A stretch of DNA of 64,000 nt from positions 768,001-832,000 of the forward strand of contig CAXXXD010000002.1 in assembly GCA_963663385.2 (NCBI GenBank), in the 5' to 3' direction. Every line of letters begins with the position of its first letter. Position 1 is the stretch's first letter. Below are positions 9,273 to 38,579 of the stretch, piece by piece. Below the pieces are notes generated by a model. The model searched no databases. It saw only the letters and a program-made list of their open reading frames with translations, and was not told the DNA's origin. The position numbers were made by a program, and so were the translations under genes. The stretch is from Oceanispirochaeta sp. (GTDB lineage: Bacteria; Spirochaetota; Spirochaetia; DSM-2461).

Positions 9273-9289
9273 GTCTACGGACTGGCAAT

Positions 9290-9322
9290 AGCCCTCCGGA
9301 ACCAGTTTCCGGAGGGCTTTTC
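9290..9322 (+). terminator. Stem-loop after dppA (partial terminator or mRNA stabiliser)
   Basis: AGCCCTCCGGAA-CCAGT-TTCCGGAGGGCT followed by a short T run. Confidence 0.7.
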
Positions 9323-9340
9323 CCCATTACAGAAGGTATT

Positions 9341-10354
9341 ATGATACGATTTATACTAAAACGTCTTTCCATGCTGCTCCCGACCCTTTTCGGGGTAGTT
9401 ACCCTTGTCTTTTTTATGATTGCTCTGGCTCCGGGAGATCCGGCGCGGGTTATGCTGGGGGAACGGGCCAGCAAAGAGAAAATTGAAAAACTGCGGGCTG
9501 ATCTGGGTTTGGATAAACCCCTGACACAGCAGTATGCCCTTTATCTGAAACGGGTGGTACACCTGGATTTCGGAAAATCCATTAAATCCGGTCAGCGGGT
9601 TATGGATGAAATAAAAGAACGCTTCCCTGCAACGGTGGAACTGGCTATCTGTGCCATGATTTTTGCCTCGGTCCTTGGAATCTGGATAGGCGTTCTTTCC
9701 GCAACAAAGAAAAATACCTGGATCGATTATACTTCCATGGTGGGGGCCCTCTTCGGGGTTTCCATGCCGGTTTTCTGGCTGGCTCTGGTCATGATTATGA
9801 TCTTTTCAGTTAATCTGAATATGTTCCCCACCGGGGGGCGTATGAATATCCGCTACTATTTTACGCCGGAAACAAATTTTTACCTGATCGATACGTTCAA
9901 ATATCTCTTTCAGGGGCATCCGGAATATTTCCTGTCTGCCCTGCATCACCTGATCATGCCTTCTGTAGCACTTGGGACAATTCCGCTGGCCATTATTGCC
10001 CGGACGACACGGAGCAGCATGCTGGAGGTTCTGAAACAGGACTATGTTAAAACCGTCCGTTCCGCGGGAATAAAGGAAAAACGGGTCATCTACCGCTATG
10101 CTCTGAGAAATGCCCTGCTGCCGGTTATAACAGTTATCGGTCTGCAATTCGGTCTGTTACTGGCCGGAGCCATACTGACGGAAACCATTTTTGCCTGGCC
10201 GGGGATCGGCAAATGGATTTATCAGGCTATTGAAGCCCGGGACTACCCCGCCGTTCAGGGAGGTATAATCATTATCTCCACCACTTTTGTCCTGATCAAT
10301 CTGGTAGTGGATATTCTCTATTCCGTTATTAATCCCAAGATCAGACTGCAGTAG
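9341..10354 (+). CDS. dppB: Peptide ABC transporter permease
   Basis: PGDPA, GLDKPL, RSSMLEVL, LRNALLPV motifs. Confidence 0.9.
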   Translation: MIRFILKRLSMLLPTLFGVVTLVFFMIALAPGDPARVMLGERASKEKIEKLRADLGLDKPLTQQYALYLKRVVHLDFGKSIKSGQRVMDEIKERFPATVELAICAMIFASVLGIWIGVLSATKKNTWIDYTSMVGALFGVSMPVFWLALVMIMIFSVNLNMFPTGGRMNIRYYFTPETNFYLIDTFKYLFQGHPEYFLSALHHLIMPSVALGTIPLAIIARTTRSSMLEVLKQDYVKTVRSAGIKEKRVIYRYALRNALLPVITVIGLQFGLLLAGAILTETIFAWPGIGKWIYQAIEARDYPAVQGGIIIISTTFVLINLVVDILYSVINPKIRLQ

Positions 10355-18023: not shown

Positions 18024-18157
18024 TTAAAGAATGCTTTCCCTCGTTTTGCATATAGACTACACGGATAAAATTCTTTAGTATTTCATTTTATATAACCAAT
18101 TTTATTTTTTTATTGCGGTATATGCATCGCAATATGCCGCAAATCAAGGAGAGCTTC

Positions 18158-19849
18158 ATGAGTTACGATTACAGGAAGTATAAACCCTTCCCACCAGTTT
18201 CACTGCCTGACAGGACATGGCCGGACAAGGTCATTAAAACCGCACCCCAATGGTGCAGTGTTGATCTGAGAGATGGAAATCAGGCCCTACCCATTCCCAT
18301 GAATGTGGAAGAAAAACTGGAACTATTTGAGCTACTTCTAAAAATTGGTTTTAAAGAGATTGAAATCGGATTCCCCTCTGCGTCCCAGACAGAGTTTGAT
18401 TTTCTGAGAACACTTATCGATAGGAACCTGATTCCTGAGGATGTGACAATTCAGCTTCTCACACAGGCCAGAGAGCACCTTATAAGGCGTTCTTTCGAGG
18501 CCATAAAAGGCTGTAAAAATGTGATCATACATTTTTACAATTCCACTTCCACTCTGCAGAGGGATGTGGTTTTCCGGAAGAGCCGGAAAGAGATCATCGA
18601 TATTGCCGTAGAAGGGGCCAGGCTGATCAAAGAGATAGCCAGAGAACACCCGGAAACCAACCTCCGCTACGAGTACTCCCCAGAGAGTTTTACCGGAACG
18701 GAGCTGGACTTTGCCAGGGAAATCTGCGAAGCCGTGATGGATGTAATGGAACCGACCCCCGACAGCAAGCTGATCCTCAACCTTCCGGCTACAGTGGAGG
18801 GGCATACCCCCAATATTCACGCCGACCAGATCGAATGGTTCAGCAGGAATATTAAAAATCGGGACTGTGTCTCCATCAGCCTGCATGCTCATAACGACCG
18901 GGGAACCGGTGTGGCCGCAACAGAGCTGGCTGTTATGGCTGGTGCCGACAGGGTAGAGGGAACCCTCTTCGGAAACGGAGAGAGAACCGGAAACACGGAT
19001 CTAATGAATGTTGCGCTTAACCTGTATTCTCAGGGAATTGATCCTGAACTGGACTTCTCCAGGATGGACAGGATTGTGGAAATCTACAGGCGCTGTACAC
19101 GGATGGATGTCCATCCCCGTCACCCCTATGCGGGAGAGCTGGTCTACACCGCCTTTTCCGGGTCCCATCAGGATGCCATTAAAAAGGGACTTGACCGGTA
19201 CAATACGGAAAAACCTTTTCACTGGGAAATCCCCTACCTTCCTATCGATCCTTCCGACCTGAACAGAGAGTATGAAGCGATCATCAGGATCAACAGCCAG
19301 TCCGGTAAGGGGGGAGTCGCCTTCATTCTGGATTCCCAGTACGGTTACAAGCTGCCCAAGGCAATGCATCCCGAGTTCAGCAGTATAATCCAGAGGATCA
19401 CCGATGAAACCGGAAATGAGCTGAAGGGTGAGGAGGTCTATGAAGTATTCTCAAGGGAATACCTGGATGATTCGGGGCCCTATTCTCTGGTGGACTATGA
19501 GATCCATGCCAAGCTGGATTCCAAAAAGTCCGATGCGGAAAAACATGATGTGGGTATCCAATGTGCTCTCGATTATCATGGGGAAATCCTTCACCTGGAG
19601 GGACACGGAAACGGACCGATCGACGCTTTTTTCCATGCTCTTCAGGGATCAGGTGCCCCGAAAGTGGATTTCATCTCCTATGATGAGCATGCTCTGAGCG
19701 AAGGCGCCGATTCTCAGGCGGTTTGTTATATCGGAGTATCCGACTCGAAAGGCCGGCCCTTTTTTGGAGTAGGTGTAGACAGCAGCATCAATGCAGCGTC
19801 ATTAAAAGCGCTGCTCTGTGCGATAAACAGGATAGAAAAGAGAGCGTAA
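18158..19849 (+). CDS. leuA: 2-isopropylmalate synthase
   Basis: AAGGAG RBS; VDLRDGNQAL, HAHNDRG, GNGERTGN, GNGPIDAF regulatory domain. Confidence 0.95.
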   Translation: MSYDYRKYKPFPPVSLPDRTWPDKVIKTAPQWCSVDLRDGNQALPIPMNVEEKLELFELLLKIGFKEIEIGFPSASQTEFDFLRTLIDRNLIPEDVTIQLLTQAREHLIRRSFEAIKGCKNVIIHFYNSTSTLQRDVVFRKSRKEIIDIAVEGARLIKEIAREHPETNLRYEYSPESFTGTELDFAREICEAVMDVMEPTPDSKLILNLPATVEGHTPNIHADQIEWFSRNIKNRDCVSISLHAHNDRGTGVAATELAVMAGADRVEGTLFGNGERTGNTDLMNVALNLYSQGIDPELDFSRMDRIVEIYRRCTRMDVHPRHPYAGELVYTAFSGSHQDAIKKGLDRYNTEKPFHWEIPYLPIDPSDLNREYEAIIRINSQSGKGGVAFILDSQYGYKLPKAMHPEFSSIIQRITDETGNELKGEEVYEVFSREYLDDSGPYSLVDYEIHAKLDSKKSDAEKHDVGIQCALDYHGEILHLEGHGNGPIDAFFHALQGSGAPKVDFISYDEHALSEGADSQAVCYIGVSDSKGRPFFGVGVDSSINAASLKALLCAINRIEKRA

Positions 19850-19859
19850 GGAGAAAACT

Positions 19860-20921
19860 ATGTCATATAAAGTAGCGGTTCTTCCCGGAGACGGGATCGG
19901 GCCTGAAGTCATGAAGTCGGCGCTGGATGTACTGGCCGCCGTGGAGAAAAAGTTCGGTTTCAAACTGGAACTGGAAGAAGGTCTGATAGGCGGATGTGCT
20001 TACGATGAGACGGGCGATCCCCTTCCTGAAGCCACAAAGAAAATCTGCCTTGCAGCGGATGCTGTTCTTCTGGGAAGCATCGGCGGTCCCAAATGGGACG
20101 GTCTTCCCCCTGAGAAAACCCCGGAGCTGGGAGGCCTTCTTGCTATTCGTAAAATGCTTAAACTCTATGCCAACCTGCGTCCGGCTGTGATCTACGAAGA
20201 ACTGAAAGCCATGTCGCCCCTGTCCGATAAGGTGCTCCGGGAAAAGGTTGATCTTTTAACAGTTCGAGAACTGGCCCATGGTATCTACTTCGGTGAACCC
20301 AAAGAGCTGAGCGATGACAGAGGCCTTGATACCATGGTCTATACAAGGGCGCAGGTCGAACGTATTGCCCGTCAGGGATTTGAAGCAGCCCGGAGAAGAA
20401 ATAAAAAACTCTGCTCTGTAGATAAGGCCAATGTCCTCTCCTCCTCCAAACTCTGGAGAAAGGTTGTGATTGAGGTGGCCAAAGACTACCCCGATGTGGA
20501 ACTGACTCATATGTATGTGGATAATGCGGCCATGCAGCTGATGCTGAATCCCCTGCAGTTTGACGTTATTGTTACCTCCAACCTCTTCGGTGATATTCTC
20601 TCCGATGAATCGGCCGCTATCTGCGGATCCCTGGGAATGCTGCCTTCCGCTTCTCTGGGAGAGAAGATCAGCCTTTTTGAACCATCCGGCGGAAGCGCCC
20701 CCGATATTGCAGGCAAAGGCATTGCCAACCCCATTGCCCAGATCCTTTCTCTGGCCATGATGCTGGAAATCTCCTTTAACCTGAACGATGCGGCCGCTGC
20801 CATCCGCAAGGCTATTGATGATTGTGTAACCGGCGGTATCCGTACCGGTGATATTGTGGATCCCGGTATGAAGGCTGTTTCCACAGAAGAGATGACAAAA
20901 GAGATTATCAGCCGGATCTGA
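19860..20921 (+). CDS. leuB: 3-isopropylmalate dehydrogenase
   Basis: PGDGIGPEV, VDKANVL, NLFGDILSD, GSAPDIAGKGIANP. Confidence 0.95.
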   Translation: MSYKVAVLPGDGIGPEVMKSALDVLAAVEKKFGFKLELEEGLIGGCAYDETGDPLPEATKKICLAADAVLLGSIGGPKWDGLPPEKTPELGGLLAIRKMLKLYANLRPAVIYEELKAMSPLSDKVLREKVDLLTVRELAHGIYFGEPKELSDDRGLDTMVYTRAQVERIARQGFEAARRRNKKLCSVDKANVLSSSKLWRKVVIEVAKDYPDVELTHMYVDNAAMQLMLNPLQFDVIVTSNLFGDILSDESAAICGSLGMLPSASLGEKISLFEPSGGSAPDIAGKGIANPIAQILSLAMMLEISFNLNDAAAAIRKAIDDCVTGGIRTGDIVDPGMKAVSTEEMTKEIISRI

Positions 20922-26427: not shown

Positions 26428-27309
26428 ATGGACCAACTGGATCAATTGGAAAGCATCGGCATCCGCATCCTCCGGGAAGCGTATGCCAACTTCAGGAACC
26501 TGTGCATGCTCTGGTCAATCGGCAAAGACAGCACCGTCCTCCTGTGGCTGGCCCGTAAAGCCTTCTACGGTCATGTCCCTTTTCCTCTGGTGCACATCGA
26601 TACCCATCATAAAATCCCGGAGATGATCGAGTACCGGGACCGTCTGACCAGGGAGTGGAAACTCCCCATGGTTTACGGGGAGAACGCGGAAGCCCTCGAA
26701 GCCAAACAAACCTTCCCGGACGGGAAGGCCGACCGTCTGACCTGCTGCCGGCTGCTTAAGGCGGAAGCCCTGAAGAATACCCTGAACGGAAGCTGGAAGC
26801 GCTACCGTTTTGATCATAACGCCGACCGGTATGCTCCGGATGAAGACACAGAGATGTATACCGGTGTCATCGTGGGCGTCCGGGCGGATGAAGAGGGCTC
26901 CCGTTCCAAGGAGAGGTATTTCAGCCCCCGGGACAGGGAGAATATCTGGGATGTGGGGGACCAGCCCCCCGAGTTCTGGAACCAGTTTAAAACGGATTAT
27001 GCTCCGGGAACCCATGTCAGGATCCATCCCCTTCTGGACTGGACTGAGCTGAATATCTGGGAGTATATCCAGAGGGAGAGTATCCCGACGGTCTCCCTCT
27101 ATTACAACCGGGGGGACGGCAAACGCTACCGGTCTCTGGGCTGCGGCCCCTGTACGGTTCCCGTGGAATCGGATGCCAGGACTGTGGCGGAAATTATCGA
27201 AGAGCTGAAAACCGGCAGGTTCGCCAATATAGCCGAGCGGTCCGGTCGGGCCCAGGACAAGGATGACGGGGGCGGTCTGGAAACCCTCAGGCGGGACGGG
27301 TACATGTAA
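26428..27309 (+). CDS. cysD: Sulfate adenylyltransferase subunit 2
   Basis: [10 protein letters not shown]-loop, [35 protein letters not shown]-terminal GYM; TAATG coupling to cysN. Confidence 0.92.
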
Positions 27310-29117
27310 TGCGGAAAGAACAGATGAATATCGTTTTTACCGGTCATGTGGATCACGGAAAGAGCACCGTGGTGGGGCGTCTCCTGGCAGACACGGAGAG
27401 CCTTCCCGAAGGAAAGCTGGAACAGGTGAAAAAAGAGTGTGAGAGAAACTCAAAACCCTTCGAGTATGCCTTTCTGCTGGATGCTCTCAAGGATGAACAG
27501 TCCCAGGGAATTACTATCGATTCGGCCCGGGTGTTTTTCAACACGGATAAGCGGGACTACATAATTATTGATGCGCCGGGGCATATAGAGTTTCTGAAAA
27601 ACATGATTACCGGAGCGGCCCGGGCGGAAGCGGCCTTCCTGGTGATTGATGCGGACGAAGGGGTCCAGGAAAACTCCCGCCGTCACGGCTACCTCCTTTC
27701 CATGCTGGGAATCCGGCAGCTTTGCGTACTGGTTAATAAAATGGACCTTGTTGACTACAGCCGGCCTGTCTATAACCGGATCGTCCGGAGGTATACCCGC
27801 TTTCTGCGGAATATCAATCTGAGTGATGTCAATTTTATTCCTGTCAGCGGCCGGGAAGGGGACAATATCTTTCACAAGGGTGAGAACATGCCCTGGTGGG
27901 ACGGGGGAACGGTTCTGGATCTGCTGGATAATTTTGAAAAAGAGAAGGACCTGATCCATCTGCCCATGCGGATGCCCGTTACGGATATCTACAAATTTAC
28001 CAATCACGGCGACAGCCGGCGTATTATAGCCGGCACTGTGGAAACGGGGTATTTCACTCAGGGGGACGAACTGATCTTCTACCCCTCCGGGAAGAAAAGC
28101 CGCATAAAATCGGTGGAGGCATTTAACGCGGATGTCCCTGACAGAATCAGTGCCGGCATGGCTACCGGGGTGACTCTGGAAGAGCAGATCTATCTTTCCC
28201 GGGGGGCTGTCGCCTGCCGGTCCGACCAGATGCCCCCCAAAGTGGGGAACTGCCTTAAAGTCAGCCTTTTCTGGCTGGGGAAAGAGTCCCTGAAAACGGG
28301 GAAAGAGTACTTCCTCAAGACTGGAACCGCCAGAGTCCGGGCCCAGCTTGTGGAAGTTTCAAGGGTCATAGACGCATCTACCCTTGATGCCGAAGTCAGG
28401 GATAATCAGGTGAACCGTCATGATGTGGCCGAATGCGTATTCAGTCTGCAGAAGGCAATCGCCTTTGATCTGGTGGAAGAACTTCCTCAGACCAGCCGTT
28501 TCGTTCTGGTGGATGAGTATGAAATCGCCGGGGGCGGGATTATCCGTGATCTGGATGACCGGGGACAGGCCGAGTATGGGGAAAAACTGATCAGGCGGAA
28601 CCTGGAATGGGAGAATGGCATTGTAACAGAACTGGACCGGATGCAGGCTTACGGTCAGAGACCCGCCCTTATCCTTGTTACGGGAGAACAGGGCTGCGGG
28701 AAAAAAGTTTTTGCGGAAAAGCTGGAAAAAGAGTTTTTCCGTCTGGAGAAGAAAGTCTACTACCTGGGGTATAAAAGCCTTGAATACGGGCTGGATTCGG
28801 ATCTGAAGACGGGAAAGCGCTTCCGGCTGCAGCAGGCTGTCCGGGAGGAGCATATCCGCAGGATTGCCGAAATTGCCCATATTATGATGGATGCCGGGCT
28901 TTTTCTTATCATCAGGATTGATAACCTGTCTTATGAGGAACGGGATCTGATTCAGCTTCTGATCGGTTCGTCCCGACTGAAAACTGTATGGGTCGGGAAG
29001 GATATAACAACGGATATAGAACCGGACTGGCATATTAAACGGCCACTGGATGTGGACGAACACATGAGGAAGGTGGAACAGATTATGATCGATTGGGAAC
29101 TGGTAGAGGTACGGTGA
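27309..29117 (+). CDS. cysN: Sulfate adenylyltransferase subunit 1 (GTPase) fused to a degenerate APS-kinase-like domain
   Basis: [25 protein letters not shown]-terminal GEQGCGKK...[17 protein letters not shown]. Confidence 0.9.
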
Positions 29118-30409
29118 TGAGTGGAGCATTTGAAAAATCGGAATACAAAGTGAAAGCCCTCTGCTGCGGCAGAATCCTGAGCGATGAGGGACAGCCCCTG
29201 GTCTGTCCGGATTGCCCGGAATCTCATTTTTTAAGGACAGAATATGCAGACAAACAGCTGAAACTCAAAGACGATTCTCTCGGTTTGTATAAATACAGCG
29301 GATGGCTGCCGGTTGAGAGAGTCCTGGAGGGATCCGCCGCTCCCGTCAGCTATAGAAGTACCGCTCTGGCAGAAAAACTGGGGCTGGAAAATCTCTGGAT
29401 AACCTTTAACGGCTGGTGGCCTGAAAAAGGGGCCGCCATGAAAACAGGAACATTCAAGGAGTGCGAAGCCTATTCGGTTTGCGCCCGTATCCCACGGGAT
29501 AAAAAGGGCATTCTGGTTGTGGCATCCGCGGGAAATACGGCGCGGGCTTTTGCCCGGGTCTGCTCCGATAACAATATCCCCCTTGTTATTACCATTCCCG
29601 AAGATAATATTGGGGCCATGTGGTCGGATAAACCCCTGGCGGACTGTGTGAAAATAGTGGCGGTTTCAGCGGGGGCCGACTATTTTGATGCCATTTCCCT
29701 GGCGGGGAAGCTCTGCAGGGGAGAAGGCTATTTCCCCGAAGGGGGCGCCAGGAATATAGCCCGCCGGGACGGAATGGGGACAACCGTCCTGTCTGCGGTA
29801 ACCGCCATGGGACGAATCCCGGACTACTATTTTCAGGCTGTCGGAAGCGGAACCGGCGCCATTGCCGCCTGGGAGGCAAATCTGCGCTTTCTGAAAGACG
29901 GACGGTACGGGAACAGCAAGATGAAGCTTATGGTCTCCCAGAACGCCCCTTTTCAGATAATCTATGATTCCTGGAAACAGGACAGCCGGGGACTGGTTCC
30001 CCTGGATGATAATCTGGCCCGGGATCAGGTAACGGCCATGGATGCCAAGGTCCTGTCCAACCGCAAGCCTCCGTACTCCCTTCCCGACGGGCTCTATGAT
30101 GCCCTGAAAGACTCGAAAGGGGATGTTTTCCTGGCAGACAACAGGGAAGCTGAAGAGGCCGGACGGCTGTTTCAGGAGTGTGAAGGCATTGATATCTCCC
30201 CGGCGGCTTCGGTTGCGGTTGCTTCTCTGGTGAAGGCCGTCGAAAGCGGCGCTGTGGGAAGGAAAGAAAGAATTATGCTGAATATTACAGGGGGCGGAAC
30301 AAAGCGTTTCGCCGCCGAGTTTACTGTGCGGTATGCCGGGGCTGATCTTGTCTTTGATCCGGATGTGGAAGAGGGAACTCTGATAGACGAAGTTAATAAA
30401 TTATTTTAA
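29117..30409 (+). CDS. Cysteate synthase (PLP enzyme, threonine-synthase fold; CapA-like)
   Basis: TGTFKECEA PLP lysine, VASAGNTARAF, GGARNIARRDGMGT, YFQAVGSGTG, VLSNRKPPYS; TGATG coupling to cysN. Confidence 0.85.
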   Translation: MSGAFEKSEYKVKALCCGRILSDEGQPLVCPDCPESHFLRTEYADKQLKLKDDSLGLYKYSGWLPVERVLEGSAAPVSYRSTALAEKLGLENLWITFNGWWPEKGAAMKTGTFKECEAYSVCARIPRDKKGILVVASAGNTARAFARVCSDNNIPLVITIPEDNIGAMWSDKPLADCVKIVAVSAGADYFDAISLAGKLCRGEGYFPEGGARNIARRDGMGTTVLSAVTAMGRIPDYYFQAVGSGTGAIAAWEANLRFLKDGRYGNSKMKLMVSQNAPFQIIYDSWKQDSRGLVPLDDNLARDQVTAMDAKVLSNRKPPYSLPDGLYDALKDSKGDVFLADNREAEEAGRLFQECEGIDISPAASVAVASLVKAVESGAVGRKERIMLNITGGGTKRFAAEFTVRYAGADLVFDPDVEEGTLIDEVNKLF

Positions 30410-30448
30410 TACTGGTCCGCCGGATGACGGATACAAGGAGATAATAAA

Positions 30449-31735
30449 ATGAGCGTGGACATTTTTGACAAATGTAAAGGAGACGGAGGTTACTTCGGAA
30501 AATACCGGGCGGCAGGAGATAAAGATCTGACAAGACCCACTATGGACCCCATCCCCGGAAAGACCATGATGTACAACAACGAGGAGTATGTCATGTGGTC
30601 CGTGAACAACTATATTGGACTGGCTGAAAATCAGGAGATAAAGGCTGCCGCCGCACAGGCTCTTGAAACATACGGAACAAGCGCCCCCATGGGATCCCGG
30701 ATGATGAGCGGCAATACCATTCATCATCAGAACCTGGAAAAGCGTTTTGCAGAACTGTCCCGGAAAGAGGCTGCCTACCTTTTTAACTTTGGCTATCTGG
30801 GCGTTCTGGGTATTGTGTCCTCCCTCTGCGGTCCCAAAGATACGGTCGTGGTGGATAAACTGGCCCATGCCTGTATCCTGGATGCGGCCATGATGGCAAA
30901 AGCTTCGGGAGCAAAGATCCGTTACTTCAAGCACAACAACATGGAAGACCTGGAACAGGTTTTGGATAGTGTCAATAAAGACCGGGAAGGCGGTGTGATG
31001 ATCCTGATTGAAGGCGTGTACGGTATGACTGGCGACCTGGCGGATCTGCCCGGCATCTGCGCCCTGAAAGAGAAGTACAACGCCCGTCTGTTTATCGATG
31101 ATGCTCACGGTATAGGTGTTATGGGCGAAAAGGGCCGTGGAACGGGAGACCACTTCGGTGTTCAGGACAGGATCGATATCTACTTCGGAACCTTTGCCAA
31201 GGCTTTCGCTTCCATAGGCGGCTTCTGTGCGGCCGATCAGGATGTTATCGACTGGATCGCCTACAACTCAAGAACCCAGGTTTTTGCCAAGAGCCTCCCC
31301 ATGGTCTATGTAAAAACCCTGGATAAAACCCTGGACTATGTTATTGACGGGGATAACCGCAGAAAGACAATGTGGGACAACTCGAACAAGCTGAGAGACG
31401 GTCTGCGGGATCTGGGATACTACATCGGCACAGGGGAGTCTCCCATCTGTTCCGTTTTTACTCCTACCGGGAGTGATGATCCCAATGGAATGGGGGTCCG
31501 GATGGTAAAATACCTCAGGGAGAATAACATCTTTGTTACGGCTGTTGTATACCCCGTTATCCCTCCCGGGCTTTGTATGTTCCGGATGATCCCCACCACA
31601 TCCCATACGGATGCGGAAATCAATAGAACTATTGAGGTATTCGCCGCCATGAAAAAGGACCTTGATCTGGAAGACACCGTAACGGAAGAGGATATCAGAA
31701 AGATCAGCAAAGTCTACAGAAAAAGACAGGACTGA
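30449..31735 (+). CDS. Cysteate acyl-ACP/CoA C-acyltransferase (3-ketocapnine synthase, SulA/CapB-type alpha-oxoamine synthase)
   Basis: WSVNNYIGLA, HACILD, DDAHG, GTFAK(251) PLP lysine, QVFAK(281)SLPM; directly after cysteate synthase. Confidence 0.82.
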   Translation: MSVDIFDKCKGDGGYFGKYRAAGDKDLTRPTMDPIPGKTMMYNNEEYVMWSVNNYIGLAENQEIKAAAAQALETYGTSAPMGSRMMSGNTIHHQNLEKRFAELSRKEAAYLFNFGYLGVLGIVSSLCGPKDTVVVDKLAHACILDAAMMAKASGAKIRYFKHNNMEDLEQVLDSVNKDREGGVMILIEGVYGMTGDLADLPGICALKEKYNARLFIDDAHGIGVMGEKGRGTGDHFGVQDRIDIYFGTFAKAFASIGGFCAADQDVIDWIAYNSRTQVFAKSLPMVYVKTLDKTLDYVIDGDNRRKTMWDNSNKLRDGLRDLGYYIGTGESPICSVFTPTGSDDPNGMGVRMVKYLRENNIFVTAVVYPVIPPGLCMFRMIPTTSHTDAEINRTIEVFAAMKKDLDLEDTVTEEDIRKISKVYRKRQD

Positions 31736-31736
31736 T

Positions 31737-32444
31737 GTGAAAAACAGAGTTACACTCTGGTGTCATGAGTTGGCTGGGGCCTCCCCGCAGGAGGTTCTTG
31801 CCTGGGCTTATAAAACATTTGATCTGTCCAGAATCGCTCTCTCTAACAGTCTGGGGCTGGAGGACATGGTATTAACGGATATGCTGATGAAACTCGATCA
31901 GGAGTTCCCCGTATTCACCCTGGATACGGGGCGTCTCTTTCAGGAAACCTATGATCTGATGGAAGAGGCTCGGCTTAAATGGAAGCTGTCCATGAAGGTT
32001 CTGTTTCCCGACAGGGCTGCCGTCGAGGCTCTTGTCCGGGAAAAAGGGCCGAACTCCTTCTATTACAGCCTGGAAAACCGGAAAGAGTGCTGCCGTATAC
32101 GGAAAATTGACCCCCTCAAACGGGAGCTGTCCACCCTGGATGCCTGGATCTGCGGGCTCCGGAAGGAGCAGTCGGTTACCCGGACGGCGGTTCGGAAGGT
32201 GGAGTGGGATGAGGCGTTCGGTCTGATTAAATTGAACCCGCTGGCAGACTGGTCGGAGCAGCAGTGCAGGGATTATGCAAAGGACAATCATGTTCCCGTG
32301 CACTCTCTTCATAAAAAAGGGTTTCCCTCTATCGGCTGCGCCCCCTGTACCAGAGCTGTTAAGCCGGGAGAGGATATACGGGCCGGCCGCTGGTGGTGGG
32401 AGAATCCCGAAAGCAGGGAGTGCGGGCTGCATAGGAAATCTTGA
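31737..32444 (+). CDS. cysH: Adenosine 5'-phosphosulfate (APS) reductase, [4Fe-4S] type
   Basis: LDTG, ECCRIRK, SIGCAPCT, RAGRWWWE, ECGLH; GTG start. Confidence 0.9.
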   Translation: MKNRVTLWCHELAGASPQEVLAWAYKTFDLSRIALSNSLGLEDMVLTDMLMKLDQEFPVFTLDTGRLFQETYDLMEEARLKWKLSMKVLFPDRAAVEALVREKGPNSFYYSLENRKECCRIRKIDPLKRELSTLDAWICGLRKEQSVTRTAVRKVEWDEAFGLIKLNPLADWSEQQCRDYAKDNHVPVHSLHKKGFPSIGCAPCTRAVKPGEDIRAGRWWWENPESRECGLHRKS

Positions 32445-32486
32445 GGTATCCGAAGTCCCATGCTAATATTCTCTCCGGAGAATACT

Positions 32487-33659
32487 ATGAAAATAAAGTC
32501 GCCGTTATTTTATATAAAACTGTTTTTACTAATCTTTTCATTCTTCCTTTTTTCATGTGAAGAGGCCGGTAACACAGCTCCCGATGAAGAACTGGAGGAG
32601 ATCGTTGAGGAGGAATCAGCCTCCATCTTTTTTAGAAATCCACCGGCCAACGGATCGGCCCTGCCTTCGGAGTTTTCCTTGAATGCGGCCTATTCCATTC
32701 CGGATTCCCTTTTTCAGGAAGGGCACAGTTATTCTATTAAGGCCTGTTTTGAAACGGCAGACGGTTGCTATGAGGCGGCAGATTTCCCTCTGACAGAACA
32801 GTCTAAGACATCCTTCTCCATCAGTTTTGCCCTTACCAGTGAGGGGCTTCCTACCGATGCGGTTGTTCCTTTCAATCTGTCCCTTGCCCTGTACGATACA
32901 ACGGTCGATCCGGCTGTAAAGCTCTGTTCCTCCTCTTCCATTCAGTATAATGGAGTGGCATACGGGAACTGGTATGAAATAGGCTCAAAAATTGTAATTA
33001 CCAATACGCAGATGTGGATCTACCATTACAAGGGGTCCGGCCGGGGGTATGTAGCTGATATGAGGGGCTCCATGGTAAGGTTGGGGCACAACAAATATCA
33101 GACCAATGTGGAACAGGAATTTGATTCTGATACGGGAGAGTGGGTGGATATTCCCGAAGAATATCTTTCCCGGTACGTTTCTGTTGACTACCTAAATGTA
33201 CAGAAAGACGGGCGTCTGCATATCTGTAACGAAGCGGGGGATATTACCCATAATATGCTCCCCTCTGAAAGTGGCTACACCTATGACGCGGATTATTCCG
33301 GTAAGTGGTGGACTGATGATCTGAAGATAGACCCGGCGGATAATGGATCGGTTCTGTGGTTTTCTGATAATTATTTTCAGCTACAGCAGGATGATCAGCA
33401 GAAAGGAGAAGATGCTTCTTTTCCTGTATATGAGATCGGAACAGTCTCAGATAATGCCGGAACCCTGACCCTGAATGTCACTCATGTGGGCAGCGGAGAG
33501 GGCTTTGAGGAAATCGATTCGGGAAAAGAATATACCTTTACCTATGTTTATGATCCTGATGCTGTACCTGATGAGACTCTCGTTCTGACGGGCGGTCCGT
33601 TTATTGACGGCGGTGCCACTGTTTTGAACTTTGACTTATCCAGTAAATATGAAAAATAG
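32487..33659 (+). CDS. Hypothetical acidic lipoprotein
   Basis: GGAG RBS before MKIKSPLFY; hydrophobic stretch ending FLFSC (spirochaetal lipobox); no family recognised. Confidence 0.7.
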   Translation: MKIKSPLFYIKLFLLIFSFFLFSCEEAGNTAPDEELEEIVEEESASIFFRNPPANGSALPSEFSLNAAYSIPDSLFQEGHSYSIKACFETADGCYEAADFPLTEQSKTSFSISFALTSEGLPTDAVVPFNLSLALYDTTVDPAVKLCSSSSIQYNGVAYGNWYEIGSKIVITNTQMWIYHYKGSGRGYVADMRGSMVRLGHNKYQTNVEQEFDSDTGEWVDIPEEYLSRYVSVDYLNVQKDGRLHICNEAGDITHNMLPSESGYTYDADYSGKWWTDDLKIDPADNGSVLWFSDNYFQLQQDDQQKGEDASFPVYEIGTVSDNAGTLTLNVTHVGSGEGFEEIDSGKEYTFTYVYDPDAVPDETLVLTGGPFIDGGATVLNFDLSSKYEK

Positions 33660-33688: not shown

Positions 33689-33713
33689 AAAACCGCTGAA
33701 TAGCGGTTTTTTT
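33689..33713 (+). terminator. Rho-independent terminator
   Basis: AAAACCGCT-GAAT-AGCGGTTTT-TTT. Confidence 0.85.
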
Positions 33714-33800
33714 ATGCCCGAATCCCTAGTATATTCACACTATTTTGAGAAAATCCCCTTTTCATATAAGAAAAAACCTTATAAGGTATAGAGTGTTAAA

Positions 33801-33825
33801 ATGACAAAATCACTTAAAGTGTCAA
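33801..33825. promoter_or_regulatory. Palindrome TGACA-N13-TGTCA upstream of the dehydrogenase-FabH fusion (candidate operator)
   Basis: TGACA at 33802-33806, TGTCA at 33820-33824; about 25 bp before the ATG. Confidence 0.55.
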
Positions 33826-33849
33826 AATAAGACCAGTCAGGAGAGGGGA

Positions 33850-36800
33850 ATGGAACTTAAAACAATCAGAGAATATTTCAAGTATATGGTCACCGCCCGG
33901 GAATTGGATCTTCTGGAACAGAGTTATACGGGAAGGGGCGAAGCTTTCTTTCATGTTTCCGGTGCCGGTCATGAAGGTTCCTGTATTTTAAATAGTGTAT
34001 TGGAGGAGCAGGATTATCTCCATGTCCATTACAGGGATAAAGCCCTGATGATGGCCCGGGGTATGGATCCCGAAATGTTTTTTCTGTCCCTTTTTAATAA
34101 AGAAGGATCTCATTCCAAAGGACGGCAGATGGTCGCCCATATGAGCGACCCCGACCATAATATCCTCAGTATGGCCGGTCCTGTGGGAAACAGTAACCTC
34201 CATGCTGCAGGTGTGGCAGAAGCTGTAAAAGGGCAGAAAGGAAATCCCGTTGTTCTCAGTTCTCTGGGAGATGGAATGTCTCAGGAAGGGGATGTGCTCG
34301 AAGCCATAGCCCATGCGGCCCGGAAAGAACTTCCGGTTCTTTTTCTGGTTCAGGACAACGGTTTTGCTATTTCTACCAAAACAAAAGGGAATACCTTTTT
34401 TTCCCGGCCGGAAGGAGAGGCAGATTCGTTCTACGGCATACCCATTACCAGAATGGATGGCCGCTACCCCCAGAACCTTTACAGGCCCATGAAAGAGGTC
34501 GTGGACGGTATCCGGCAAACGGGGAAACCCGCCATCATTGTCATGTCCGTGGAACGCCTTCACAGTCATACCAATGCGGATGACCATAGAGTCTACCGGA
34601 CCGATGAAGAGATCAAAGCCCTTCATGAATCAAGTGATCCGGTGGATCAGCTGCACAGCTGGCTTCTGGATCAGGGTGTTTCGGAAGATGAACTGGCTGC
34701 AGAACGGCAAGAGATTATCGCCGATCTGAAAGAGAAGGCCCATAAAGCCCAGATTTCTCCCGAACCCGAGCCTGTCTATACAGCCAAAAAAGAGATCCCT
34801 GCTCATCTCACCGACCGGAAGCAGGAGTACCGCGGTACCCCCGGCAAGGAAGAACTGACCATGCTGGAAGCGATTAAGGAGACCCTCCGTTTTCACCTGG
34901 ACCGTAATCCCGCAGTAGAACTGTTCGGGGAGGACCTGGAAGATCCCAAGGGGGATGTATTCGGACTGACCAAAACCCTTTCGACCCAGTTCCCCGGACG
35001 GGTTGAAAACAGTCCTCTGGCGGAAGCCTCCATTGTCGGTCTGTCTATCGGGCGGGCTCTGGCGGGTAAACACCCTGTTGCTTTCCTCCAGTTTGCCGAC
35101 TTTCTGCCTATTGCCTTCAATCAGCTGTGGGCCGATGCAGGGAGCATGTACTGGCGAACCGAAGGCGGATGGGAGTGCCCCATGATCATTATGGTCTCCT
35201 GTGGTGCCTACAAGCCCGGAATCGGTCCCTTCCATGCCTCCAGTATGGAAGCCGTTGCCGCGCATATTCCCGGTATCGATGTGGTTATGCCCTCTACAGC
35301 AGGAGATGCTGCCGGTCTGCTCAACGCGGCCTTTGAATCGGGAAGACCAACCGTATATTTCTATCCTAAAGTTTGCCTCAACGATGTTCAGGCAAAAACA
35401 AGTTCTGATGTTTCCCGCCAGCTTGTTCCCCTGGGAATTGCCAGAAAAGTCAGCGAAGGCGAACACGTCACCTTTGTTTCATACGGCAATACAATAAGGC
35501 TGTGTCAGAAAGCGGCGGAAGCTCTGGGTAAACACAATATTACAAGTGATCTTATTGACCTTCGTTCCATCTCCCCCTGGGATCAGGAGATGGTTCTGGA
35601 ATCAGCCGAAAAAACAGGCCGGGTGATTATCGTTCATGAAGAGAATAAAACAGCCTCGATCTCTTCGGAAGTGGCTGCCTTTCTGGCGGAAAAATCCTCC
35701 CGAAAACTGAATATTAAACGAATTACCCGGGAAGATACCTATGTTCCCTGTAATTTTGATTGTCAGCTGGAAGTCCTTCCTTCCTACAAAGGAATTCTGG
35801 AAGCGGCTGCAGAGATGTTCGGCGGATCTGTCTGCTGGAAGAAGGAAGAGCTGGCTCAGGCCGGTTCTTTTACGGTCGAGATAATCGGTACCAGTCCGGC
35901 AGATGAAACGGCTACCGTTATTGAATGGAAGGTTGAAGCCGGTGATACCATTGAAGAGGGTGATCTGCTGGCTGAGATCGAAGCGGACAAGGCGGCAGCC
36001 GAGATGAAGTCCCCCGTTTCCGGTGTTGTCGAAGAGCTGATCCTGGAGGAGGGAGAGGCTGTCGCCATCGGCGCCCCCGCTCTCAAGGTAAAAACCAGCG
36101 AAACTGCCGCGGTCTCTCTCAAGCCTAAAACCAAAGAGGAGCCCGGGGAACCCGTTATCACCGGGATGACAGTTGTTTCAGAGACAAAAGATTCCGTTCC
36201 GGCAGCAGCCTCCGGAGACCGCCGCCCCTTCCTGCTGGATATTGCAGGTGTGCAGGGCAGCCGGGAAGTCCTGAATGATGAGATTATGGAATCCTGTTCC
36301 GGATGGAGTGAGGGCGAAATCCTGAAAATGACGGGAATCGAGAAGCGGAACTGGATTGGTGAAGGGGAGGATGTGGTCTCCCTGGCCAGTAAAGCCGCCA
36401 AAACTGTTCTTGAGAGAAACAGCCTTACCCTGGATGATCTCAGTCTGATTCTTGTTTCAAGCGGAACCCCCGGTACCATGACACCTTCCCTGGCAACACG
36501 GGTGCAATACAACTTAATGCCCGACGGCAAGAGGCAGCCGGCCTGTGCCGCTTTTGATATCAATGCCGCCTGTTCCGGTTACCTGTACGGTCTGCAGTCC
36601 TCCTGGGACTTTCTGAACAGCCGGCCCGACGGGCTTATTCTGCTTATTACGGCTGAGGTTCTGTCCCCCCTGGTGGATCCTTCCGATAAATCCACATCTG
36701 CTGTGTTTGGCGACGGCGCAACCGCCTCTCTGATCGCCGGAGTGGACCACGCTCTGAAGAACAGGGGGCGGGCCAGGATTTTCCGGCCCGTTACCGCAGC

Positions 36801-37191
36801 ATCGGGTGAACCCGGGGATATCCTGACGGTTCCCGCCAATCCGGCCGAGACTATCTATATGCATGGTCCCAAAGTGTATCTGGAAGCTGTTGCCAGCATG
36901 ATCTCTGTTCTGGATGATGCCTGTAAACAGGAGGAGAAGGGACTGGATGAACTGTCCCTGATTGTCCCGCATCAGGCTAATCAGAGGATTATCAATGCGG
37001 TACGTCAGAGACTGAAGATCGAAGAAGATCAGATATACAGCGAGATCCGCTACAGGGGAAATACTTCCTCCTGTACAATCCCGTTCTGTCTGGAATCCCT
37101 GATACAGGACGGGCGTTCCGGCCAGACCCTCGGGATGACAGCTTTCGGCGGCGGTTTCACCTCCGCCGGGGGACTGCTGGAAATCCTTTAA
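33850..37191 (+). CDS. Fusion protein: 2-oxoacid dehydrogenase E1alpha + E1beta + lipoyl domain + beta-ketoacyl-ACP synthase III (FabH)
   Basis: TPP motif GDG...VQDN; E1beta FGEDL, SPLAEASIVG, GPFHA; lipoyl EADK(714)A; KAS III triad AAC(908)SG, PH(1041)QAN, GN(1071)TS, TAFGGG. Confidence 0.9.
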   Translation: MELKTIREYFKYMVTARELDLLEQSYTGRGEAFFHVSGAGHEGSCILNSVLEEQDYLHVHYRDKALMMARGMDPEMFFLSLFNKEGSHSKGRQMVAHMSDPDHNILSMAGPVGNSNLHAAGVAEAVKGQKGNPVVLSSLGDGMSQEGDVLEAIAHAARKELPVLFLVQDNGFAISTKTKGNTFFSRPEGEADSFYGIPITRMDGRYPQNLYRPMKEVVDGIRQTGKPAIIVMSVERLHSHTNADDHRVYRTDEEIKALHESSDPVDQLHSWLLDQGVSEDELAAERQEIIADLKEKAHKAQISPEPEPVYTAKKEIPAHLTDRKQEYRGTPGKEELTMLEAIKETLRFHLDRNPAVELFGEDLEDPKGDVFGLTKTLSTQFPGRVENSPLAEASIVGLSIGRALAGKHPVAFLQFADFLPIAFNQLWADAGSMYWRTEGGWECPMIIMVSCGAYKPGIGPFHASSMEAVAAHIPGIDVVMPSTAGDAAGLLNAAFESGRPTVYFYPKVCLNDVQAKTSSDVSRQLVPLGIARKVSEGEHVTFVSYGNTIRLCQKAAEALGKHNITSDLIDLRSISPWDQEMVLESAEKTGRVIIVHEENKTASISSEVAAFLAEKSSRKLNIKRITREDTYVPCNFDCQLEVLPSYKGILEAAAEMFGGSVCWKKEELAQAGSFTVEIIGTSPADETATVIEWKVEAGDTIEEGDLLAEIEADKAAAEMKSPVSGVVEELILEEGEAVAIGAPALKVKTSETAAVSLKPKTKEEPGEPVITGMTVVSETKDSVPAAASGDRRPFLLDIAGVQGSREVLNDEIMESCSGWSEGEILKMTGIEKRNWIGEGEDVVSLASKAAKTVLERNSLTLDDLSLILVSSGTPGTMTPSLATRVQYNLMPDGKRQPACAAFDINAACSGYLYGLQSSWDFLNSRPDGLILLITAEVLSPLVDPSDKSTSAVFGDGATASLIAGVDHALKNRGRARIFRPVTAASGEPGDILTVPANPAETIYMHGPKVYLEAVASMISVLDDACKQEEKGLDELSLIVPHQANQRIINAVRQRLKIEEDQIYSEIRYRGNTSSCTIPFCLESLIQDGRSGQTLGMTAFGGGFTSAGGLLEIL

Positions 37192-37197
37192 TAACGA

Positions 37198-37508
37198 ACT
37201 CCCTCTCCCGGCCCCTCTCAATCTCCCCAAAGGGGAGACATCAGTTTGATTTCCCTCCCTTGGAGGGATTAAGGGAGGCTGGAGAGGGCGGATGCATCCC
37301 CGAGCAGTAAACGTAGTTTACGACCAGGGGAATCAAAGGGTGAGGGTTTACCGGACCCCTCTCAGTCTCCCCAGGGGGGAGAAGTCAATTCGGTTTCCCC
37401 TCCTTTGGAGGGGATCAAGGGGAGGCCGGGAATCAAAGGGTGAGGGGGAGGTTCCGGAAGATACAATTGATGGGTTGTACTTGCTCCGGATACCCGAGCG
37501 GAGTCGAG
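37198..37508. repeat. Cluster of REP/REPIN-like palindromes between convergent genes
   Basis: Two units CCCCTCTCA(A/G)TCTCCCC..GGGGAGA-spacer-CCCTCC(C/T)TTGGAGGG..AAGGG(G)AGGC at about 37212 and 37356; GGAATCAAAGGGTGAGGG twice; CGAGCGGAGTCGAG at 37495-37508. Confidence 0.8.
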
Positions 37509-37511
37509 AGG

Positions 37512-38579
37512 CTAGTCCTTCACCCGTCCCAGACCAAGCATTTTCAGCATCCATCTGGGAAGGGCCTTCTCCGGATCCCTTTTCTGCAGGTTCAGATACC
37601 AGTTCCACTTTTTCAAAATGGGGATCTTGTGGGTCTCCACAAATTCGATCAGGGTACCGTCCGGATCTTCTATATAGGTAAAACGTCCGGCCGCCTCTCC
37701 CATATCAAAAGAGTTCCTGCTGTCCACTGTAAAAGGGTAGCCCATGGCATTCAGTTTTTCTCCCAGACCGTCCATATTATAAATATCAAAGCAGAGATGG
37801 ATAAAACCGGCGTCTCCCCAGTAGCGGCCTTCGAATACTTTCCCAGGAGCTCGGTCCAGGCTCTGTATCAGTTCTATGCTGCTGTAGCCGAACATCTCCG
37901 CAAAAGCCCCTTTCCTGGGTTCCGTGTGGGTCAGAAGAACTCTCCGGAATGTCCCGTCTCCACCGGGAAGGGCTGCAAGATCCTTAAAACAACCGGTCTG
38001 ATCGTAGGCAATAACCGGAAAACCCAGGGCTTCCCGATAGAGAGGCAGGACCTTGTCTATATCGCCGACCCCTACGCTGGCGCCGCAGGGACCGCCGGTC
38101 AAGCCGGGTTTTCCGTAAAAGTCGTCTCTTTGAGTCTGGACAATATCAAAAATGTTCCCGAAGGGATCCCGGACAAAGAAGTGCTCCATCCCTGCAGGAT
38201 CCTTCATAATGCCGCCCGGCAGGTCCAGTCCTTCATCACTGTAAAAGGCATAGGTCCTTTTTACATCGGGTGATTTGATTTTTCCTGTAAGAATGCCCAG
38301 GTCTCCGATCTTCAGAGGCTCCGCTGGAGAGGCTGTTTTCCGGCTGGTATACTGCCATATTTCAAAACCGCTCCCGCCAGTCAGGTTCAAAGCCAGAACC
38401 GCATCCCGCCCCTGCACCTTGTTACCCGTATACTGTGTCATCAAAGGGGCATCCGCTGCCTCCTGAAAGACAGGAATATCCATTCCAAAGTATTTTCTGT
38501 ACCACTCCCAGGCTTTGTCCCGGTCGGCTACTCCAATCCCAAGCTGCTGAATCCCGCTGATTATAATGCTCATATTCAT
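37512..38579 (-). CDS. VOC (glyoxalase/bleomycin-resistance fold) protein with tandem domains
   Basis: IQQLGIGV, FEIWQY, FFVRDPFGN, GFIHLCFDI, YIEDPDGTLIEFVE. Confidence 0.8.
   Translation of the reverse strand: MNMSIIISGIQQLGIGVADRDKAWEWYRKYFGMDIPVFQEAADAPLMTQYTGNKVQGRDAVLALNLTGGSGFEIWQYTSRKTASPAEPLKIGDLGILTGKIKSPDVKRTYAFYSDEGLDLPGGIMKDPAGMEHFFVRDPFGNIFDIVQTQRDDFYGKPGLTGGPCGASVGVGDIDKVLPLYREALGFPVIAYDQTGCFKDLAALPGGDGTFRRVLLTHTEPRKGAFAEMFGYSSIELIQSLDRAPGKVFEGRYWGDAGFIHLCFDIYNMDGLGEKLNAMGYPFTVDSRNSFDMGEAAGRFTYIEDPDGTLIEFVETHKIPILKKWNWYLNLQKRDPEKALPRWMLKMLGLGRVKD

Follow-up and report, generated by a model that had tools for sequence, protein, structure and literature searches.

The closest described systems are the branched-chain 2-oxoacid dehydrogenase complex (E1alpha2beta2/E2/E3) and the condensing enzyme FabH, which the complex feeds via acyl-CoA in Bacillus, Staphylococcus and Listeria. 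Bacterial fatty-acid synthesis is known to be initiated by FabH with acyl-CoA, by malonyl-ACP decarboxylase or by enzymes of the FabB/FabY type. The gene described here lies in a window of 64,000 nucleotides (the whole stretch of DNA that was analysed) and encodes an E1alpha-E1beta-lipoyl-KAS III fusion of 1113 codons. According to the open frame and Pfam, it occupies positions 33850..37191 of the + strand, stop codon included; its start codon is ATG, with GGAGAGGGGA ahead of it.

The E1alpha (TPP-binding) domain covers residues 12-308 (33883..34773, + strand; Pfam E1_dh, 147.7 bits, cut-off 22) and carries the TPP/Mg motif G140-D141-G142...N170, as well as H240 within an SHTNADD loop. It is followed by the E1beta domain at residues 335-656 (34852..35817, + strand), in which Pfam recognised Transket_pyr (residues 335-507, 74.2 bits, cut-off 27) and Transketolase_C (residues 531-637, 96.1 bits, cut-off 25.9). 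The alpha and beta parts of E1 are on a single chain, unlike in the heterotetrameric alpha/beta class of E1, where two distinct chains bind to an E2 core. The lipoyl domain (residues 673-748, 35866..36093, + strand; Pfam Biotin_lipoyl at residues 688-743, 57.2 bits, above its cut-off) is a beta-strand domain in the AF2 model, and its lipoyl-lysine K714 (codon 35989-35991) is inside an EADKA motif. From there, a flexible linker rich in Pro, Ala, Glu and Lys leads to KAS III (residues 749-793, 36094..36228, + strand). This linker was delimited with AF2 and the alignment, is variable in the family alignment, and its AF2 means for the 10-residue blocks of residues 751-790 are 57, 77, 63 and 42, residues 777-788 being below 50.

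The KAS III (FabH-type) domain occupies residues 794-1113 (36229..37188, + strand) and matches Pfam ACP_syn_III at residues 902-964 (60.1 bits) and ACP_syn_III_C at residues 1028-1111 (75.5 bits), both above the Pfam cut-offs. It contains C908, H1041, N1071 and R1046 (equivalent to E. coli R249), and presents E823, K947 and T878 in place of E. coli W32, R151 and F87, respectively. The Pfam search found no E2 catalytic domain (PF00198) and no E3_binding domain in the fusion protein at E <= 0.01, and the PF00198 model does pick up two true E2 genes elsewhere in the same genome. The original prediction of an ORF with a TPP motif, E1beta, lipoyl K714 and a KAS III triad is confirmed by the open frame, Pfam and the residue columns, and its claim that the E2 catalytic domain is lacking is confirmed by the PF00198 search.

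Regarding the family, the same Pfam set was found in 118 of the 120 best database relatives of the fusion. Residues were compared in a set of 125 members, formed by 119 proteins of at least 1090 aa and six translations of the loci L047-L052; two partial proteins below that length were left out. G140, G142 and N170 of the TPP motif are present in 125/125, and position 141 is occupied by D in 90 members and by E in the other 35. H240, E392 and H462 of the E1 part are invariant or nearly so, where the role of H240 is assumed from its likeness to the 'HSTSDD' loop of E1alpha. The lipoyl motif E711-A712-D713-K714 and the C908/H1041/N1071 triad (C112/H244/N274 in E. coli FabH) are also kept by all 125 members. 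A second set consisted of 66 full-length fusions from loci of several phyla, some spirochaetes included, after leaving out 14 of 80 loci that were cut by contig ends or split; the Cys-His-Asn triad is again present in all of them.

The locus scan done with a single protein gave only one true relative, and the scan based on an alignment gave the wider locus set. The family is found in at least Spirochaetota, Planctomycetota, Kiritimatiellota/Verrucomicrobiota, Lentisphaerota, Pseudomonadota, Actinomycetota and two candidate phyla. Planctomycetota, Kiritimatiellota/Verrucomicrobiota and Pseudomonadota are among the phyla with complete single frames. Except for L120 (two frames), every locus with enough contig has the fusion in one unbroken frame. 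A common split form, made of free lipoyl-KAS III proteins of 430-590 aa, was considered and rejected: nearly all of these 'shorter' relatives proved to be in full-length fused frames or cut by contig ends, and therefore no such form is claimed. The split exceptions are L120 and G332, the latter with three overlapping frames. Members of the family are labelled in the databases as 'transketolase', 'TPP-dependent enzyme', 'beta-ketoacyl-ACP synthase 3' or '2-oxoisovalerate dehydrogenase E1', and this present annotation is misleading. A literature search lying mostly outside the subscription journals found no study of an E1-lipoyl-KAS III fusion.

The most informative part of the protein is the KAS III domain. 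In FabH, the adenine of CoA is stacked between Trp32 and Arg151 (PMC4606726). E. coli FabH numbering was mapped onto the family by alignment of the excised KAS III domains. The W32 position is D in 99 fusions, E in 20 and another non-aromatic residue in 6 (aromatic in 0/125), and Arg is found at the R151 position in 0/125; in the second set, W32 and R151 are both kept in 0/66. In contrast, T28, W32, R36 and R151 are all retained in the control set of 21/21 stand-alone Spirochaetota FabHs, and the stand-alone fabH of the same genome retains W32 and R151. Concerning the rest of the active site, the equivalent of R249, the ACP-docking residue according to E. coli FabH mutagenesis, is present in 122/125 and 65/66 fusions. 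The pantetheine-tunnel residues M207, G209 and N247 are conserved, likewise F304-G306 and the oxyanion residues, and R36, a pantetheine-phosphate contact, is found in 101/125 members. W819, four residues ahead of the W32 position, is invariant within the spirochaete clade, where it is a possible shifted stacking platform.

Furthermore, the F87 position is T or S in 125/125 and 64/66 fusions, and this replacement points to a roomier acyl pocket; in M. tuberculosis FabH, it is a Thr at position 87 that gives access to the long acyl channel. The fused KAS III scores below the curated NCBIfam FabH cut-offs (227.5 < 249 for PRK09352 and 190.1 < 292.1 for TIGR00747), and the stand-alone fabH of the same genome is above both (403.5 and 359.7, respectively). 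Its best solved relatives (E. coli 1HN9/1HNJ, Aquifex 2EBD and S. aureus 1ZOW) match at 123-145 bits across the whole domain. In a quick IQ-TREE tree, fused and stand-alone KAS III domains fall on opposite sides of one branch (88 versus 23 rows, SH-aLRT 100).

Since the CoA-adenine clamp is lost and the triad, the tunnel and R249 are kept, the best reading of these sequences would be a direct acyl transfer from the acyl-dihydrolipoyl arm to the fused KAS III. Two ideas of the original prediction gain support here: CoA-independent acyl transfer, from the residues just described, and FabH in place of the E2 core, as KAS III sits at the E2-core position and PF00198 is absent. In the mechanism that we infer, which extends to the substrate, the lipoyl-to-Cys transfer, the product and a role for E3, the fused E1alpha-beta with TPP would decarboxylate a 2-oxoacid, which in this spirochaete is most likely branched, such as 4-methyl-2-oxopentanoate, and E1 would then reductively acylate the lipoyl group on the protein's own K714. 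The arm, on its flexible linker of about 45 residues, would reach into the tunnel of KAS III with its acyl-dihydrolipoyl thioester, where the acyl group could pass to Cys908 without an acyl-CoA intermediate. KAS III would condense it with malonyl-ACP via H1041/N1071, docking through R1046, and type II fatty-acid synthesis would start from the resulting 3-oxoacyl-ACP. Finally, the reduced arm would be re-oxidised in trans by one of the two dihydrolipoyl dehydrogenases (Lpd) encoded in the genome, which also has two genes of LplA/LipB-type lipoyl ligases. A predicted complex of the lipoyl domain (672-756) with two copies of KAS III (795-1113), built with its own alignment, obtained a score of 0.07 (mark 0.32), which gives no answer on binding in either direction. 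On balance, we lean towards the fusion being a self-contained '2-oxoacid-primed KAS III', a stand-alone unit probably fed by a branched-chain 2-oxoacid and working with no acyl-CoA intermediate.

As to the substrate class, the likeliest candidate is a branched-chain 2-oxoacid, with pyruvate as its rival. The same machine could use pyruvate (or 2-oxobutyrate) to make acetoacetyl-ACP (or 3-oxopentanoyl-ACP), that is, a CoA-independent straight-chain starter, but we consider this unlikely. In its favour, the top NCBIfam matches of both E1 halves are PDH-named E1 models, all below cut-offs (PRK11892, 201 bits; TIGR03181, 170 bits). The best solved relatives of the E1beta part are from P. aerophilum, T. 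thermophilus and G. stearothermophilus, and the G. stearothermophilus PDH reaches 162 bits versus 168 bits for the T. thermophilus branched-chain enzyme. For E1alpha, the solved structures give a mixed picture: the best matches are human BCKDH (113.7 bits) and T. thermophilus (106.5 bits), and P. putida BCKDH E1alpha, with 46.5-46.8 bits, is below the PDH E1alphas (73-78 bits). Moreover, the family is also present in Pirellulaceae, Neisseriaceae, Methylococcaceae and Devosia, groups which are not known for branched (iso/anteiso) fatty acids. However, an AceE-type PDH is already encoded in the genome, as is a normal FabH of the acetyl-CoA type whose CoA clamp is intact, and the change of F87 to Thr/Ser across the family fits an acyl group larger than acetyl. 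Iso-branched fatty acids are also reported for cultured relatives: the major fatty acids of Oceanispirochaeta strains include iso-C13:0 and iso-C15:0 (PMC11129491), and those of Pontiella include iso-even ones (PMC7356697).

Elsewhere in the window, leuA-leuB is located at 18113-20921; it was counted as support for the branched-chain reading.

The presence of E2 in the carriers raises another explanation, which is that of a 'Rosetta-stone' fusion with the old chemistry, where a separate E2 makes acyl-CoA, the fused FabH uses it, and the fusion provides proximity only. It had been claimed that no E2 or E3 gene is nearby, and this holds within the window: the nearest ones belong to aceE-aceF-lpd (G000:C2:861173-866564), about 29 kb past the window end, and a second set is found in an E2-E3-fused E1alpha-beta cluster on contig C4. 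The use of this absence as a sign of E2 independence fails, since E2 is present in the own genome and in 8/8 other fusion-bearing genomes tested, so that independence is not arguable from gene absence. E2 and E3 genes, which occur in the own genome and in 8/8 other carriers tested, are, together with the conserved R36 and pantetheine-tunnel residues, what the old chemistry would call for. Nevertheless, this explanation seems quite improbable given the CoA-adenine clamp, which is kept in none of the fusions of either set and in all the stand-alone FabHs of the control. In addition, Pfam found no peripheral-subunit-binding domain for docking on an E2 core, and E2 is not a conserved neighbour, no neighbour family recurring in more than 10 of 86 loci around the fusion.

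The position of KAS III, exactly that of the E2 catalytic domain, could also suggest that it is an acyltransferase only, a stand-in for the E2 core that unloads the acyl group of the lipoyl arm onto free CoA or holo-ACP with no condensation. KAS III can run its first half-reaction, the thioester exchange at the active-site Cys, in both directions, which would agree with such a role. However, the His-Asn pair for malonyl decarboxylation is retained in every fusion of both sets and R249 in nearly all of them, and there is little probability of a transfer-only role because pure transfer would not need these residues.

The surroundings of the gene bear on a last proposal. The same strand carries cysD-cysNC-cysteate synthase-AOS-cysH-lipoprotein, and the fusion gene follows 190 bp downstream. 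Between them, an intrinsic-terminator-like hairpin follows the lipoprotein gene (33689..33714, + strand; 9-bp stem AAAACCGCU/AGCGGUUUU, loop GAAU, then a T run), with a folding energy of -13.9 kcal/mol and z = -2.55, although the consensus scan did not list it. There is also a promoter-like site, ATGACA-16-CAAAAT with TG (33801..33828, + strand), a consensus match only, 22 nt ahead of the ribosome-binding site of the fusion gene; 5 such sites were found in the region versus 3.2 expected. The nearest relative retains a 141-codon AOS gene fragment at the same spot, and therefore the adjacency is older than that split, and the relative that lost the operon still has an intact fusion gene (84% identity). 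Cysteate synthase (TIGR03844) was found in 0/9 other fusion-bearing genomes, eight of them at least 99% complete and one a MAG of unknown completeness; in the phylum sample of 401 genomes, it is present in 25 and the fusion in 9, both only in this genome. Hence, despite the short gap and the AOS fragment, the original idea of a dedicated supplier of iso-branched acyl groups for the adjacent cysteate/capnine-type sulfonolipid operon is unsupported by the co-occurrence check, the intervening signals and the low recurrence of every neighbour family, and has very little chance of being right. The fusion gene looks like a stand-alone housekeeping unit whose adjacency to the operon is incidental.

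The same genome has fabH-fabD-fabG-fabF elsewhere. At E <= 1e-10, no FabH-family match other than the fusion was obtained in genome G345 (99% complete), which does have a FabF-like gene; for some genomes, G345 among them, the fusion may be the only initiating condensing enzyme. Chances appear evenly balanced that the family represents a widespread, undescribed form of fatty-acid initiation, an E2-less module where KAS III would receive its acyl group from a lipoyl-lysine instead of coenzyme A. If so, a CoA-free route would join the known ways of starting bacterial fatty-acid synthesis, and it would explain how 2-oxoacids derived from amino acids are channelled to membrane lipids, bypassing the acyl-CoA pool. 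Provided that such a transfer does take place, another acyl-accepting enzyme could replace the E2 core in a 2-oxoacid dehydrogenase complex, and engineers would have a compact single-chain module to supply fatty-acid or polyketide synthesis with starter units of their choice.

Compared with known systems, the fusion shares alpha and beta E1 on a single chain with other fused E1alpha-beta proteins, such as the 819-aa protein of the genome's own E2-E3-E1alpha-beta cluster and a second one of 779 aa from an Atlas cluster, auto-named 'acetoin dehydrogenase E1'. Unlike the fusion, these have no lipoyl domain or KAS III, are encoded beside E2 and E3, and are only about 30% identical to it in E1beta. 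PRK11892-type PDH E1beta (464-position model, matched over fusion residues 271-655) also has a lipoyl domain joined to E1beta; an E2 lipoyl domain of the same genome matches the first 115 positions of the model, which therefore includes a lipoyl domain. However, that domain is N-terminal and accompanied by a normal E2 core, whereas the fusion has it on the C-terminal side, with a ketosynthase after it.

With the FabH/KAS III of type II synthesis, the fused domain has in common the triad, the oxyanion and tunnel residues and R249, but it differs in W32 (D/E), R151 (not Arg) and F87 (T/S), and forms a clade separate from the sampled stand-alone FabHs. The branched-chain 2-oxoacid dehydrogenase complex resembles the fusion in E1_dh, Transket_pyr and Transketolase_C, in the TPP motif with the active-site His and Glu, in the lipoyl-lysine swinging arm and in the proposed outcome, where a KAS III with Cys-His-Asn makes a branched 3-oxoacyl-ACP starter. 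In contrast to the complex, the fusion is on one chain with no E2 core and no E3/E1-binding domain, its lipoyl domain lies between E1beta and KAS III, and the acyl-CoA intermediate is probably skipped because its KAS III is devoid of the CoA-adenine clamp.

The gene at 33850-37191 (+) of the window is a single frame of 1113 open codons, which starts with ATG and has GGAGAGGGGA just ahead of it. Its product (P0001) matches, above cut-off, the Pfam domains E1_dh (residues 12-308), Transket_pyr (335-507), Transketolase_C (531-637), Biotin_lipoyl (688-743), ACP_syn_III (902-964) and ACP_syn_III_C (1028-1111). Neither the E2 catalytic domain nor the E3-binding domain is matched in P0001 by Pfam at E <= 0.01. 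The single-chain E1alpha-E1beta-lipoyl-KAS III architecture of the original prediction is confirmed by these domains and by the family alignment, including its lack of an E2 catalytic domain, and the residue numbers assigned to the lipoyl lysine (K714) and to the KAS III triad (C908, H1041 and N1071) were right in the alignment of family members. NCBIfam models match the same parts of the protein, each under its curated cut-off, and the FabH models score 227.5 (cut-off 249) and 190.1 (cut-off 292.1). The AlphaFold2 model, built with a 61-row alignment, is confident, with a mean pLDDT of 85.2 and a pTM of 0.65, and the lipoyl domain is joined in it to KAS III by a low-confidence linker (10-residue block means of 57, 77, 63 and 42 over residues 751-790, with residues 777-788 below 50).

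The fusion is a conserved family and no accident of this Oceanispirochaeta genome (G000). The same Pfam set is found in 118 of the 120 best database relatives, with 1099-1178 residues, while the remaining two are partial; identity to P0001 across the 120 is 52-95%, and the closest named relatives are 'Spirochaetaceae bacterium 4572_59' (84%) and unclassified Oceanispirochaeta (72%). Moreover, a profile scan with one genome per species returned at least 586 relatives among 592 candidate stretches. Considering the best 80 of these loci, the complete frame is present wherever the contig is long enough, except for L120, where it is broken into two frames. According to the record titles, their hosts are Planctomycetota, Kiritimatiellota/Verrucomicrobiota (Pontiella, Tichowtungia, Opitutaceae), Lentisphaeria, Sumerlaeota, Hydrogenedentota, Alpha-, Beta- and Gammaproteobacteria (Devosia, Neisseriaceae, Methylococcaceae, Cysteiniphilum, Fastidiosibacter), one actinobacterial family and Spirochaetota. 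Concerning the last phylum, lipoyl-KAS III lies in a frame of more than 1100 codons in 8 of 401 sampled genomes, G000 counted, and is split in a ninth (G332); the remaining matching genomes have only stand-alone FabHs of about 330 residues, with 29-38% identity among the matches listed. In a quick maximum-likelihood tree, one branch (SH-aLRT 100) parts 88 fused KAS III domains from 23 stand-alone FabHs, a small outgroup made up of 21 Spirochaetota FabHs, E. coli FabH and the fabH of G000 itself, and the sub-clades of the fused domains mostly match phyla.

Regarding G332, its fusion lies in three frames of 204, 507 and 453 aa with 4-bp overlaps (locus L053, 8823-12315, -), the first cut being inside E1alpha, and a second copy lies in four short frames (locus L054, 7755-9896, +). 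In the quick tree, a long branch leads to its KAS III part. These copies may be decaying or may represent a genuine split form.

As judged from the residues kept across 125 family members (119 database proteins of at least 1090 aa and six translated from loci L047-L052), every module looks catalytically competent. The TPP motif G-[DE]-G...N is kept, and E392, H240 and H462 of the E1 halves, the lipoyl motif EADK714A and the Cys-His-Asn of KAS III are invariant. The acyl-CoA donor site was compared, with positions numbered after E. coli FabH (K-12 gene as reference), between these 125 members, 66 fusions from the profile-scan loci and 21 stand-alone Spirochaetota FabHs. According to PMC4606726, the CoA adenine is sandwiched between Trp32 and Arg151 of FabH. 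The Trp32 position is W in all 21 stand-alone enzymes, and is occupied by D (99), E (20), G (3) and T, S and N (one each) in the 125 members and by D (45), A (12), E (6), G (2) and S (1) in the 66 fusions. The Arg151 position is R in 21 of 21 stand-alone FabHs and in no fusion of either set, the 125 members having P (67), A (19), K (17), F (8), H (5), G (5) and others. Both W32 and R151 are present in the fabH of G000 itself, and T28 and R36 in the 21 stand-alone enzymes. The Phe87 position also differs, being F in 18 of the 21, T (119) or S (6) in the 125 members and T (53), S (11) or C (2) in the 66 fusions. On the other hand, Arg249, the ACP-docking residue of E. coli FabH, is kept in 122 of 125, 65 of 66 and 21 of 21 sequences, respectively, and conservation in the 125 members extends to the tunnel residues M207, G209, N247 and F304-G306.

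The fused KAS III retains the look of a condensing enzyme using malonyl-ACP but has lost that of an enzyme gripping acyl-CoA by its nucleotide end, as would be expected if the acyl group came on the protein's own lipoyl arm. There are two caveats to the loss of this grip: R36 is still present in 101 of the 125 members, and W819 (window 36304-36306), four residues ahead of the Trp32 position, does not vary within the 61-row spirochaete alignment. The residue at the W819 position varies in other phyla, and one alignment places W in the neighbouring column in 29 of 66 fusions.

The requirements in trans of the proposed cycle, in which the acyl group would pass from the lipoyl arm directly to KAS III, are all encoded in G000, which has two dihydrolipoyl dehydrogenases, two LplA/LipB-type enzymes and a canonical fabH-fabD-fabG-fabF cluster. 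This genome also has two complete conventional 2-oxoacid dehydrogenase systems: aceE-aceF-lpd, about 29 kb past the window, and a cluster at 413042-418231 (+) of contig C4 (locus L008, 3043-8232) in the order E2, E3 and fused E1alpha-beta, the latter of 819 aa and devoid of lipoyl and KAS III domains. All 8 of the other carriers tested have an E2 as well. Hence, the absence of E2 could not be retained as support for E2 independence, which has to be argued from the fusion protein's own features and not from gene absence. Furthermore, in G345, a genome 99% complete (contig C5, 1872575-1873903), no FabH-family match other than the fusion reaches E <= 1e-10, and a FabF-like gene has 290.8 bits, under the cut-off. 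This fits an initiating role, and that genome may depend on the fusion alone for the initiating condensation.

The substrate is the weakest link of this reading. Against solved structures, E1alpha scores highest with human BCKDH (113.7 bits), followed by the branched-chain E1 of T. thermophilus (106.5) and, lower, by PDH E1alphas (73-78 bits), although P. putida BCKDH reaches merely 46.5-46.8 bits. E1beta scores do not separate substrate classes, and the NCBIfam E1 matches are PDH-named, all under cut-off. Pyruvate is a rival substrate, and it gains from the presence of the family in groups that are not known to have iso/anteiso fatty acids. Physiology favours a branched-chain substrate in the Oceanispirochaeta lineage: PMC11129491 and PMC7356697 give iso-C13:0 and iso-C15:0 among the major fatty acids of Oceanispirochaeta strains, and i-C12:0, i-C14:0 and i-C18:0 for Pontiella, respectively. 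The genes leuA (848.6 bits) and leuB (493.3 bits) are located at 18113-20921 (+) of the window, 13 kb upstream of the fusion. The product of LeuB, 4-methyl-2-oxopentanoate, is a candidate substrate.

The same strand carries, upstream of the fusion, a tight operon (26428-33659) with cysD (26428-27309), cysN/C (27309-29117), a cysteate synthase (29093-30409; TIGR03844, 474.6 bits, above cut-off), an SPT/BioF/Kbl-like alpha-oxoamine synthase under all cut-offs (30449-31735), an APS/PAPS reductase (31737-32444) and a 399-aa lipoprotein without family match (32460-33659). No SDR-type reductase was found within it. In line with the original prediction, it is plausibly a capnine-type module, and it would form a self-sufficient set from sulfate through cysteate to aminosulfonate in a spirochaete. 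The idea that the fusion feeds this operon was not supported. The lipoprotein gene is followed by a hairpin that has a 9-bp stem and a T run (33689-33714; -13.9 kcal/mol, z = -2.55), a promoter-like site (33801-33828) precedes the fusion, and cysteate synthase was found in none of the 9 other carriers. Of the 401 Spirochaetota genomes sampled, 25 have it, among them every one of the 17 from family f19, and G000 alone has it together with the fusion; none of the neighbour families is shared by more than 10 of 86 fusion loci, and such sharing is lineage synteny. The nearest relative (locus L011) has the fusion, at 10001, with the downstream Dus, TatD, M23 peptidase and bactofilin genes. Just upstream it has a 141-codon oxoamine synthase fragment (9164-9586, +), which matches residues 151-291 of the enzyme in the window at 90% identity; a 123-aa C-terminal fragment of an FAD oxidase lies nearby. 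These fragments seem to be remnants of an operon since deleted. The nearest relative has lost the operon and retained the fusion gene, which appears to be a separate unit. Downstream in the window, a 129-aa ORF without family match (37292-37681, +) and a 355-aa glyoxalase-fold gene (37512-38579, -) overlap in the 3' part of the latter, of which just the last 127 residues match in the closest relative.

The CoA-independent primer role is strengthened by the loss of the CoA clamp and is unproven; we consider it slightly the better bet, and hold a branched-chain substrate in particular with less confidence. No description of an E1-lipoyl-KAS III fusion was found in the literature searched, and this is a widespread, uncharacterised enzyme architecture. 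Among known systems, the closest is the BCKDH complex together with FabH, which it feeds via acyl-CoA. Like that pair, the fusion has an E1, a lipoyl arm and a ketosynthase; unlike it, it has no E2 and, on present evidence, would have no CoA step. Compared with E2 it lacks the defining catalytic domain, and compared with canonical FabH it falls below the curated cut-offs and lacks the CoA clamp, so it is described as working like them and as a member of neither.
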